Sequence record: PQ824230.1
DNA from: Enterobacter phage vB_Ecl_id4496
DNA: 64,000 bases
Strand: one strand, 5' to 3'
The translations under genes were made by a program, and so were the position numbers. The number at the start of each line of letters is the position of its first letter. The first letter of the stretch is position 1. This document shows, piece by piece, positions 50,648 through 52,208 of the stretch. Under the pieces are notes generated by a model, which saw nothing but the letters and a program-made list of their open reading frames with translations, ran no database searches and was not told the DNA's origin.

Positions 50648-51381
50648 TTGTAACTCCACTGACTAACGAAGATATTCGTGATGAACTGTGCCATGCTCTG
50701 TTCAACGAGATGTTTGTAATTGACAAAACTGGCGCAAAGACCATTGAGTTAATTGGTCCATCTTTTGTAGTAACCGAAGATTCAATTTTCGGAACAGTTA
50801 ACCAAGAATATGTTGAACGTGAACTTGCGTGGTACAAATCCAAGTCTCTGTTCGTGAAAGATATTCCGGGTGGTACTCCAGCAATTTGGGAACAAGTTTC
50901 ATCTTCAAAGGGTGAAATTAACTCAAACTATGGCTGGGCAATCTGGTCTGCTGAAAACTATAATCAATTCTCATTCTGCGCAACTGAGCTGATTGAAAAA
51001 CCAGATTCTCGTCGTGCAATTATGATTTACACTCGTCCAAGTATGCAAGTTGATTTTGAACGTGATGGTATGAGTGATTTCATGTGCACTAACACAGTTC
51101 AATATCTTATTCGTGATGGTCGTGTAAACGCTGTCGTTAATATGCGAAGCAATGATGTTGTATTTGGTTTCCGCAATGATTATGCTTGGCAGAAATATGT
51201 GTTAGAATCATTAGTAGAAACAGTTAATGCAGGTTCTGGTGAAAAATATGTTCCAGGTGACATTATTTGGAACGCTGGGTCTCTGCACGTGTATGAGCGT
51301 CATTTCTATCTGGTTGACCATTATCGTCAAACCGGCCGGATTGATGTTAAGAAATCTGACTACAAAGGCAAATGGAAATGA
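50644..51381 (+). CDS. 42: dCMP hydroxymethylase gp42
   Basis: AWYKSKSLFVKDIPG...GEINSNYGWAIWS...NPDSRR.IMIYTRPSMQ...DFMCTNTVQYLIRD...NAVVNMRSNDVVFGFRNDYAWQKYVL is nearly identical to T4 gp42. Tracked ORF 50614 trimmed to ATG 50644 (ATGA overlap). Confidence 0.95.
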   Translation: MIVTPLTNEDIRDELCHALFNEMFVIDKTGAKTIELIGPSFVVTEDSIFGTVNQEYVERELAWYKSKSLFVKDIPGGTPAIWEQVSSSKGEINSNYGWAIWSAENYNQFSFCATELIEKPDSRRAIMIYTRPSMQVDFERDGMSDFMCTNTVQYLIRDGRVNAVVNMRSNDVVFGFRNDYAWQKYVLESLVETVNAGSGEKYVPGDIIWNAGSLHVYERHFYLVDHYRQTGRIDVKKSDYKGKWK

Positions 51382-52208
51382 TTCAATTTGTAATTCCGAG
51401 TTACAATCGTGTCGGGGCAGTAACTGCCCTGGATATGTTCCCTACTGGTTATGTACCTCATTTAGTAGTTCGTGAGTCTCAGAAAGAAGAATATGAGATG
51501 CATTACAGCGCGTTAGCTAAAATCGTAACTATTCCAGATGATGTAAATGGCATTGCTGGTACTCGTCGTTTGATTACTGAAATGTATCAAGGCCAACGAA
51601 TCTGGATGCTAGACGATGACACTACAATTCATACCACTGAGATTCGTGCTAAAGACGACCGTCGTATTCTTCATGATGTTGGAATGACATGGGACGAATT
51701 CAATAAACTCACACAGTATGTTGAAGCAGCTATGGACTGTGGATTCTATCACGGCCATGCTCGTTTGCCTATTTTCAAGATTGATTCTAAGTGGGGTCAT
51801 TTCCGTGAGAACTCTTATGGATTCACTAACACTTTCTACGATTTAAGCAAACTTTCTGCTGATGACATTGGATATGGTATAGTAGACCTGTCCGAAGATA
51901 CATACGCATTCCTTAAACTCATTAATATGGGTTATCCTCATCTGGCGATTTTCAAATATCTCGTCAAATCTGGCAAAGGACAAGCTCCAGGCGGCGTATC
52001 ATCTATGCGTAATGCAGCTAAACAAAATCGCGCATTAGAAAAAATTCATGCTGACTTCCCAACTCAAGCTCGTTGGAAATCAGAAGGTGACCCAACCAAA
52101 ACTATGTTTGGCACTGACGAGCCTCTGAAAGTACTTCGTATGTGCGTAGCCAAGAAACAAAAGTCAGATGCTTTCAAAAAATTCAGTGAGATTGAGCCTA
52201 CTTTATGA
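51378..52208 (+). CDS. GT-A fold / family-2-like glycosyltransferase candidate, translationally coupled between gene 42 and beta-gt
   Basis: N-terminal FVIPSYNR (the hhhIPxYN motif of GT2) and WMLDDDTT (DxD) about 70 residues later. ATGA overlaps with both neighbours. Tracked start 51372 is an alternative. Confidence 0.5.
   Translation: MIQFVIPSYNRVGAVTALDMFPTGYVPHLVVRESQKEEYEMHYSALAKIVTIPDDVNGIAGTRRLITEMYQGQRIWMLDDDTTIHTTEIRAKDDRRILHDVGMTWDEFNKLTQYVEAAMDCGFYHGHARLPIFKIDSKWGHFRENSYGFTNTFYDLSKLSADDIGYGIVDLSEDTYAFLKLINMGYPHLAIFKYLVKSGKGQAPGGVSSMRNAAKQNRALEKIHADFPTQARWKSEGDPTKTMFGTDEPLKVLRMCVAKKQKSDAFKKFSEIEPTL

Follow-up and report, generated by a model that had tools for sequence, protein, structure and literature searches.

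The beta-alpha-glucosyltransferases characterised in phages T2 and T6 use alpha-glucosyl-hmC as their acceptor, a substrate that is impossible in the phage analyzed here. In T6, deletion of the gene (ba-gt) abolishes gentiobiosyl-hmC and increases sensitivity to Brig1 (PMC11078745), BapA removes mono-glucose but not gentiobiose (bioRxiv 10.64898/2026.02.25.707755), and HPLC/MS ties the TAGT family to gentiobiosyl-mdC in Tequatroviruses (PMC13390438). TAGTs have been described as a sister group of GT2, outside GT2 proper (PMC13216743), and an R...DDD...ED(Y/F) motif has been reported for phage GT-A/JGT-like enzymes (bioRxiv 10.1101/2023.12.21.572611). [quoted passage not shown] The gene also already carries the annotation "beta-glucosyl-HMC-alpha-glucosyltransferase" in numerous records, those of CC31 and PG7 among them. 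Both literature and RefSeq already contain the gene, its family, and the gene combination, and the arrangement is not the unprecedented one implied by an earlier note on this DNA.

Here, we analyzed a window of 64,000 nucleotides from Enterobacter phage vB_Ecl_id4496 (PQ824230.1), a Karamvirus closely matching Enterobacter phage fGh-Ecl01 (99% identity) and CC31 (96.5%), in which a TAGT ORF lies between gene 42 and beta-gt (table 1).

Table 1. Positions of the gene 42–TAGT–beta-gt cassette, of the TAGT motifs, and of the 55-to-47 region in the window.
Feature	Position	Strand	Remarks
gp55	39267..39800		
55-to-47 interval	39801..40971	+	only small ORFs (a-gt.5, a-gt.4, a-gt.3, a-gt.2 homologues); alpha-gt absent
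gp47	40972..41994		
gene 42, dCMP hydroxymethylase, hmC precursor	50644..51381	+	245 aa from ATG 50644; PF00303 E 9e-15
ATGA overlap gene 42/TAGT	51378..51381	+	gene 42 stop TGA 51379-51381; also in T2, Merlin
TAGT / beta-alpha-gt ortholog	51378..52208	+	276 aa, predicted GT-A fold; ORF list, phrog_842, T2 homology
FVIPSYNR motif, residues 4-11	51387..51410	+	GT-A-typical nucleotide-binding strand/loop; I6, P7, S8, R11 invariant
DDD, D79-D81 (DxD metal/UDP-sugar motif)	51612..51620	+	invariant, 22-sequence alignment
E173-D174 "ED" motif, candidate catalytic base (inverting GT-A)	51894..51899	+	D174 invariant, E173 at least 90%
G205-G206, APGG loop	51990..51995	+	invariant; low pLDDT in model
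ATGA overlap TAGT/beta-gt	52205..52208	+	TAGT stop TGA 52206-52208, beta-gt ATG 52205
beta-gt, DNA beta-glucosyltransferase	52205..53281	+	358 aa; PF09198 E 4e-60; phrog_7922 E 4e-222

With homologues reaching E = 1e-178 and a dN/dS of 0.06 in the comparison with Merlin and 0.04 in that with CC31, which indicates strong purifying selection, this ORF is genuine rather than a chance reading frame. A second possible start exists at the upstream ATG 51372 (278 aa); because the homologues all open with MIQ..., the start at 51378 is the likely one. As the earlier note had pointed out, the ORF is tied to both of its neighbors by ATGA overlaps, each of which is seen in the sequence. The downstream overlap is also found in Merlin, CC31, PG7, and the metagenome contig L008, and a further, third ATGA junction (50644-50647) links a 146-aa ORF upstream to gene 42. 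Because these overlaps chain all three genes, gene 42, TAGT, and beta-gt are probably co-produced, possibly through translational coupling. As for promoters and terminators, a scan of positions 49800-53600 returned counts not above those of shuffled sequence, and is therefore uninformative on operon structure.

The TAGT ORF shares 65% identity over its full length (180/276, E = 5e-140) with the T2 beta-glucosyl-HMC-alpha-glucosyltransferase (YP_010073690) and is matched by phrog_842 over residues 1-272 (E = 7e-82). In the T2 locus (L003), ba-gt begins at 3001, before the end of gene 42 at 3004, which is the same ATGA overlap as in the window. Judged by homology, the ORF is thus the Karamvirus ortholog of the T2/T6 beta-alpha-gt (also g-gt), within the TAGT family. 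The suggestion of an "extra", novel enzyme is accordingly ruled out by the 65% identity to a characterised T2 protein: what stands in this slot is the ortholog of the gentiobiosyl-hmC enzyme, at the same position and with the same overlap after gene 42.

At the level of domain profiles, the Pfam family PF20691 (TAGT) scores 25.0 bits against the ORF, under its gathering cut-off of 27.5 (E = 2.1e-5, residues 3-120 only), and a precomputed assignment to PF20691.4 exists for most of the close homologues. Glycos_transf_2 (PF00535) gave no match at E ≤ 1, NCBIfam none for either the TAGT ORF or beta-gt, and a sequence search of the PDB nothing meaningful. The AF2 model (pLDDT 88.8, pTM 0.88) consists of a single Rossmann-like GT-A domain with a DxD motif, and Foldseek retrieved 216 PDB matches with it at E ≤ 0.001, with GT2 enzymes on top, namely WrtF, RmlT, AvpGT, TarS, TarP, and K4CP (GT2-type GT-A). 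Among viral structures (BFVD), the model matches a Klebsiella phage ba-gt with a TM of 0.98 and TAGT-domain proteins with TM of 0.65-0.8 (E down to 1e-16). In an alignment of 22 sequences, with identity down to about 20%, residues I6, P7, S8, R11, D79-D81, D174, G205, and G206 are invariant, and the ORF displays the R...DDD...ED(Y/F) active-site pattern through R11, D79-D81, and E173-D174. On our best reading, the protein is a metal-dependent, GT2-like GT-A enzyme, and most likely an inverting one. The earlier note had expected a GT2-like protein with a DxD motif and a GT-A fold, and both the confidence of the model and its matches to TarP, TarS, RmlT, and WrtF bear this out.

The beta-gt of the window is intact, with 49% identity to T4 beta-gt and a conserved LFTDIRLP catalytic-Asp motif (D101 here, D100 in T4), and is the sole primary transferase present. 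The slot between genes 55 and 47 is indeed empty of alpha-gt, as previously noticed: only small ORFs are found there, all belonging to PHROGs of unknown function, and tblastn with T4 alpha-gt against the whole 64-kb window returned nothing better than E = 2.5. These small ORFs are named a-gt.5, a-gt.4, a-gt.3, and a-gt.2 in the PG7 RefSeq record, and their presence implies that only alpha-gt itself (with T4's mobB) is missing from the interval. For the remaining approximately 123 kb of a complete Karamvirus genome, the absence of alpha-gt rests on our collection-wide tblastn and on Thomas 2018, in whose Table 1 the alpha-gt entries of CC31 and PG7 read n/a (PMC6024577). In this collection, alpha-gt was detected in 657 phage records, and "Enterobacter" is not one of their ten most frequent name classes, of which the last counts 4 records; among Enterobacter-phage records, 25 carry TAGT and 25 carry beta-gt. 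Consequently, the alpha-gt partner expected of the T2/T6 group, and with it the alpha-glucosyl-hmC acceptor, is missing from the window, and since beta-gt is present instead, the acceptor should differ from that of T2/T6 in the anomeric linkage of its first glucose.

From an evolutionary perspective, our comparison newly documents that the 42-TAGT-beta-gt cassette recurs across five lineages. It was found in Karamvirus, Moonvirus, Serratia PS2, Acinetobacter AB1I1M-1, and two metagenome contigs, with 52-85% identity, beta-gt adjoins ba-gt in Salmonella S16-type phages as well, and the TAGT-beta-gt pairing is kept in distant genera at 48-52% identity. Likewise new are the strong purifying selection on TAGT and the way in which the two partner groups intermingle: in a neighbor-joining tree of nine sequences (no bootstrap), the alpha-gt-paired TAGTs (T2, Jiaodavirus) nest among the beta-gt-paired ones, and the nine-sequence alignment has no column with a fixed difference between these groups. 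Both observations would fit an enzyme that tolerates either acceptor.

On this basis, the TAGT ORF, a T2/T6-type ortholog, probably adds a second glucose after beta-gt has acted. The pathway would start with gp42 supplying hm-dCMP, subsequently built into DNA, on which beta-gt, as sole primary transferase, would place a beta-linked glucose on hmC. TAGT would then move a second glucose from UDP-glucose onto the first, through a beta-1,6 linkage by analogy. This would yield a diglucosyl-hmC of the gentiobiose type, in which the linkage next to the base would be beta instead of alpha. Judging from T6, the phage would likely profit in that mono-glucosyl-hmC is hidden from host enzymes that recognize or strip it. 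A second sugar-transfer step leading to a disaccharide on hmC had already been put forward in the earlier note, and we judge it the most reasonable function. In the literature that we searched, no TAGT-family member is shown to be active on beta-glucosyl-hmC, and there is no direct nucleoside chemistry for phages with beta-gt and TAGT (Karamvirus, Enterobacter phage, S16).

An alternative that we consider unlikely is that the TAGT enzyme is a second primary transferase acting on bare hmC, beside or in competition with beta-gt, so that the DNA would carry two mono-glycosylated bases and no disaccharide. Direct glycosylation of 5hmC is indeed achieved by TAGT-family GT-A enzymes of TET/5mYOX phage clusters (bioRxiv 10.1101/2023.12.21.572611), and a solitary TAGT homologue, with neither alpha- nor beta-gt, occurs in 288 of 753 phage genomes (NAR 2026, PMC13216743). 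However, the TAGT of the window has an identity of only about 20% with these solitary or TET-linked homologues, whereas its nearest characterised relatives (65-70% identity) are secondary transferases. Moreover, beta-gt alone glucosylates the DNA of T4 delta-a-gt completely (bioRxiv 10.64898/2026.02.25.707755), and by analogy scant free hmC should therefore be left here for a competitor. It is a little less probable still that the second sugar is not glucose, or that its linkage is other than beta-1,6. Donor and linkage are not readable from sequence, and phage GT-A enzymes, some of them of the TAGT family, install hexoses of diverse kinds as well as HexNAc; yet in the same metavirome study, non-glucose transfer usually needed a partner epimerase (bioRxiv 10.1101/2023.12.21.572611), when the neighborhood of the cassette, in the window as in PG7, contains neither a sugar-nucleotide epimerase gene nor any other gene for sugar modification. 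The protein is also 65% identical to a UDP-glucose-using enzyme, and none of our findings points to the non-glucose sugar that had been raised as an option for this locus. Finally, that the gene is a functionless relic needing an alpha-glucosyl acceptor no longer made, as would be suggested only by what the T2/T6 enzyme is called and known to act on and by the missing alpha-gt, is highly improbable and can be considered ruled out by strong purifying selection (dN/dS 0.04-0.06; 92.8% amino acid identity between Karamvirus and Moonvirus for TAGT, better conserved than gp42 with 76.3%), the catalytic motifs being all intact and the pairing with beta-gt being maintained in distant genera.

We give about equal weight to the possibility, and to its contrary, that a chemically undocumented glucosyl-beta-1,6-glucosyl-beta-hmC ("beta-gentiobiosyl-hmC") is present in the DNA of Karamvirus, Moonvirus, S16-type Salmonella phages, Serratia PS2-like phages, and some Acinetobacter T4-like phages. 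This base would arise because the second-step TAGT accepts the first glucose whatever its anomeric linkage. Under this scenario, 42-TAGT-beta-gt would be the ancestral T-even cassette, from which T4 would have lost TAGT and T2/T6 would have lost beta-gt. The matter is of practical importance, as the sugar pattern of hmC determines which host defenses a T4-like phage escapes, be they restriction enzymes (McrBC, GmrSD, BrxU), the Brig1/Brig3 glycosylases, the BapA deglucosylase, or CRISPR. The second glucose guards T6 against Brig1 and BapA; Brig1 is already evaded by a beta-linked first glucose, on top of which a second glucose would add a layer of protection. The real sugar structure is therefore relevant to the choice, sequencing, and engineering of therapeutic phages of Enterobacter, Salmonella, and Citrobacter, and the question that remains is one of the chemistry of the DNA sugar rather than of sequence discovery.

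With regard to known systems, the most remote likeness is to the bacterial GT2 enzymes of wall teichoic acid and O-antigen synthesis (TarP, TarS, RmlT, WrtF), with which the TAGT protein has the GT-A fold and DxD motif in common, albeit at 10-16% identity and a TM of about 0.5, their acceptors being polymers or oligosaccharides and not DNA. The PF20691 TET-associated glycosyltransferases and the GT-A enzymes resembling the trypanosome base-J glucosyltransferase have the same fold and the R...DDD...ED motif, with only about 20% sequence identity. Their action comes after post-replicative TET oxidation and is often exerted directly on 5hmC or 5hmU; in the window, by contrast, hmC is made pre-replicatively by gp42 and TAGT is probably a second-step transferase. 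At the other extreme, CC31p040, PG7 gp039, and the other Karamvirus, Moonvirus, and Salmonella S16-type orthologs (93-99% amino acid identity, identical 42-TAGT-beta-gt-uvsX cassette) show essentially no difference, the window being another such isolate. Between these, the T2/T6 beta-alpha-gt is of equal length, likewise directly follows gene 42 through an ATGA overlap, and has the same R...DDD...ED motif and PHROG, but its partner is an alpha-gt encoded in the 55-47 region, with no beta-gt, whereas the partner of the TAGT analyzed here is the beta-gt directly downstream, with no alpha-gt.

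The 276-aa ORF between gene 42 and beta-gt almost certainly encodes a protein of the beta-glucosyl-HMC-alpha-glucosyltransferase (TAGT) family, to which the second-glucose enzyme of T2 and T6 (ba-gt) belongs. It matches phrog_842, the cluster bearing that enzyme's name, over residues 1-272 (E 7e-82), and is orthologous to T2 ba-gt, with which it shares 180 of 276 residues (65%, E 5e-140), in agreement with the 65% published for CC31 versus T2 (Thomas et al. 2018, PMC6024577). Its score against Pfam TAGT (PF20691) is sub-threshold (25.0 bits for a cut-off of 27.5, E 2e-5), most of its close homologues carry a precomputed PF20691 assignment, and the Pfam search returned no sequence-level match to Glycos_transf_2; by structural clustering, TAGTs form a sister group to GT2 and do not fall within it (PMC13216743). 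Both motifs reported in the earlier note, FVIPSYNR and DDD, are intact. In a 22-sequence alignment reaching down to ~20% identity, I6, P7, S8, R11, Y39, D79, D80, D81, D174, G205 and G206 are invariant and E173 nearly so, R11, D79-D81 and E173-D174 forming the R...DDD...ED(Y/F) active-site signature of phage GT-A and base-J-glucosyltransferase-like enzymes (bioRxiv 10.1101/2023.12.21.572611). The AlphaFold2 model built on this alignment is confident (pLDDT 88.8, pTM 0.88); its best matches are WrtF, RmlT, AvpGT, TarS, TarP and K4CP among solved structures (GT-A, GT2-type; E 2e-7 to 1e-5, TM ~0.5) and a Klebsiella phage beta-alpha-gt among viral models (TM 0.98), alongside numerous proteins with a "TET-associated glycosyltransferase domain" (TM 0.65-0.8). 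The GT-A fold with a DxD motif predicted in the earlier note was thus right.

The accompanying suggestion of a novel enzyme did not hold: the gene belongs to a known family in a known arrangement, and the phage is nearly identical to annotated genomes. Over the 42-to-beta-gt stretch, identity reaches 99.0% with Enterobacter phage fGh-Ecl01, 98.3% with PG7 and 96.5% with CC31, all of the genus Karamvirus (Tevenvirinae), whose records label the ORF "glucosyl transferase" or "beta-glucosyl-HMC-alpha-glucosyltransferase", that of CC31 adding [quoted passage not shown]. The literature has dealt with the pairing of beta-gt and ba-gt since 2010 (Petrov et al., PMC2993671), and both genes, with no alpha-gt, were described in CC31, PG7, S16, STML-198, Moon, Merlin, STP4-a and PS2 (Thomas et al. 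2018, PMC6024577). According to a 2026 NAR paper on the two T4 transferases, in which T6 TAGT was modelled as GT-A, most phages carry TAGT alongside alpha-gt or beta-gt (PMC13216743).

Features of the studied regions and of the TAGT protein (window coordinates, residues for motifs)
Feature	Position	Strand	Basis
gp55	39267..39800		phrog_234 E 2e-67
gp47	40972..41994		phrog_100 E 6e-135
74-aa ORF	49972..50196	+	
146-aa ORF	50207..50647	+	phrog_1754 (unknown function)
ATGA, 146-aa ORF/gene 42	50644-50647		
gene 42	start ATG 50644, stop TGA 51379-51381	+	thymidylate-synthase family, PF00303 E 9e-15
ATGA, gene 42/TAGT	51378-51381		
TAGT ORF	51378..52208 (ATG 51372 = alternative upstream start)	+	ORF list
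FVIPSYNR	residues 4-11		
DDD	residues 79-81		
High-identity block in TAGT	51811..51990		Merlin comparison
ATGA, TAGT/beta-gt	52205-52208		
beta-gt	from ATG 52205	+	T4-type; PF09198 E 4e-60; phrog_7922 E 4e-222

Gene 42 and beta-gt, named in the earlier note as the flanking genes, were confirmed by their Pfam and PHROG matches, and the ATGA overlaps with each by the sequence itself. The gene 42/TAGT junction reads aaATGGAAATGAttc, the TAGT ATG sharing bases with the gene 42 stop, and the TAGT/beta-gt junction reads ctttATGAaa, the TAGT stop (TGA 52206-52208) sharing bases with the beta-gt start. A third ATGA links the 146-aa ORF to gene 42 downstream, and four genes are therefore chained head to tail. 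Because all homologues compared begin with MIQ(F/V)VIPSY, the 276-aa form is the likely protein; the upstream start, chosen in the CC31 record, would add 2 residues. For gene 42, the mechanical ORF list starts at TTG 50614 (255 aa), and the homologues in CC31 and Merlin start with MIVTPLT, that is, at the ATG (245 aa) that creates the overlap with the upstream ORF.

That 146-aa ORF, without a Pfam match, occupies the imm/imm.1 slot of T4, T2 and Merlin. It is probably a lipoprotein, because its start, MKFLAVAAAMLLAGC, resembles a signal peptide plus lipobox, and could be a superinfection-exclusion-type lipoprotein in place of Imm. Between it and DNA polymerase (gene 43), the 74-aa ORF has no match in Pfam or PHROG; PG7 has a hypothetical CDS of equal length at the corresponding position.

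The earlier note's claim that the alpha-gt slot holds only small ORFs of unknown function also stood, by tblastn, PHROG assignments and PG7 annotation alike. Four small ORFs, all in unknown-function PHROGs, separate gp55 from gp47. The PG7 RefSeq interval reads 55, a-gt.5, a-gt.4, a-gt.3, a-gt.2, a tiny ORF and 47, whereas T4 has 55, a-gt.5, a-gt.4, a-gt.3, a-gt.2, mobB, a-gt, 47.1 and 47: the neighbourhood is conserved and the missing piece is alpha-gt itself. The best tblastn hit of T4 alpha-gt in the whole 64-kb window had E = 2.5. Across 50,697 phage records, 657 have alpha-gt matches, and "Enterobacter" is outside their ten commonest name classes, the tenth counting 4 records; 25 Enterobacter-phage records carry a homologue of the ORF and 25 carry beta-gt. 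Alpha-gt is likewise "n/a" for CC31 and PG7 in Thomas et al. 2018 (PMC6024577).

We consider it fairly probable that beta-gt would glucosylate hmC first and that TAGT would then place a second glucose on the first, probably by a beta-1,6 linkage as in gentiobiose, giving a predicted di-hexosyl-hmC nucleoside of 581 amu, where a mono-hexosyl one has 419 amu (both values taken from bioRxiv 10.1101/2023.12.21.572611). The window beta-gt is intact, 49% identical to that of T4, and keeps the LFTDIRLP segment, site of the T4 catalytic residue D100 (bioRxiv 10.1101/2023.12.21.572611); T4 lacking alpha-gt is fully beta-glucosylated (bioRxiv 10.64898/2026.02.25.707755). For the T-even ba-gt homologue, function is established by genetics and chemistry: T6 deleted for ba-gt loses gentiobiosyl-hmC (PMC11078745), and Tequatroviruses with alpha-gt and TAGT contain alpha-gentiobiosyl-mdC by HPLC/MS (PMC13390438). 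We judge it less likely that TAGT acts directly on hmC, or that it adds a different sugar or uses a different linkage. A relic gene is very unlikely in view of strong purifying selection (dN/dS 0.06 versus Merlin, 0.04 versus CC31) and of conservation above that of gp42 (92.8% versus 76.3% amino-acid identity between Karamvirus and Moonvirus). By analogy with T6, a second glucose would likely protect from enzymes recognising or removing a single one, such as Brig1 (PMC11078745) and BapA (bioRxiv 10.64898/2026.02.25.707755).

In a neighbour-joining tree of few sequences, built without bootstrap support, the alpha-gt-paired TAGTs (T2-type, Jiaodavirus) sit inside an otherwise beta-gt-paired set, the Jiaodavirus TAGT being sister to that of Karamvirus; the window TAGT is 65% identical to the alpha-gt-paired enzyme of T2 and 70% to that of Klebsiella phages, and more distant (48-52%) from the beta-gt-paired ones of Serratia and Acinetobacter phages. 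Among these few sequences, the alignment has no position at which the two partner groups carry different residues, each fixed within its group. Because of this nesting and the lack of a group-separating column, sequence comparison favours a TAGT tolerating either anomer of the first glucose, plausibly explained by the 6-OH being remote from the anomeric carbon. We found no nucleoside analysis of any beta-gt plus TAGT phage in the searchable literature, in which the structure of the hmC sugar under this pairing has already been raised as a question.

Two further observations concern Citrobacter phage Merlin (L010). The high-identity block, spanning ENSYGFTN...EDTYAF...GKGQAPGG, is 96-99% identical in nucleotides to Merlin against a background of ~65-90% across 42-TAGT-beta-gt, which suggests a recent Karamvirus/Moonvirus recombination or gene-conversion patch, or unusual synonymous constraint. 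RefSeq begins Merlin beta-gt at L010:2171, apparently 96 nt inside the gene; the full gene would be L010:2075-3151, whose ATG at 2075 forms an ATGA with the TAGT stop and gives MKIAIINM..., matching the T4 and window N-termini.

The 42-TAGT-beta-gt cassette has an old origin and a wide distribution. Genes 42, TAGT, beta-gt and uvsX follow one another in Merlin, in two metagenome contigs, whose TAGTs share 85% and 52% identity with that of the window, and in Serratia phage PS2, where an extra ORF comes after gene 42; Acinetobacter phage AB1I1M-1 has TAGT, beta-gt, gp40. The extra ORF (PS2_042, L005:2129-3055; counterpart at L007:3014-3955, in a further locus of this type) is 308-313 aa long, has no Pfam match, is absent from the window and might be a further DNA-modification gene. 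In Escherichia phage vB_EcoM-G3G6, a Tequatrovirus, gene 42 is followed by TAGT, by a beta-gt-like gene that shares 44% identity with the beta-gt of the window, and by uvsX (L006 3153-5077), and alpha-gt is present elsewhere. Some Tequatroviruses therefore hold all three transferases, and would make natural test cases for acceptor specificity. In T2, ba-gt lies directly downstream of gene 42, overlapping it by 4 bases as in the window, and is followed by uvsX, whereas T4 has beta-gt in that place; the Klebsiella Jiaodaviruses are T2-like, with 42, TAGT, uvsX and alpha-gt elsewhere in the genome.
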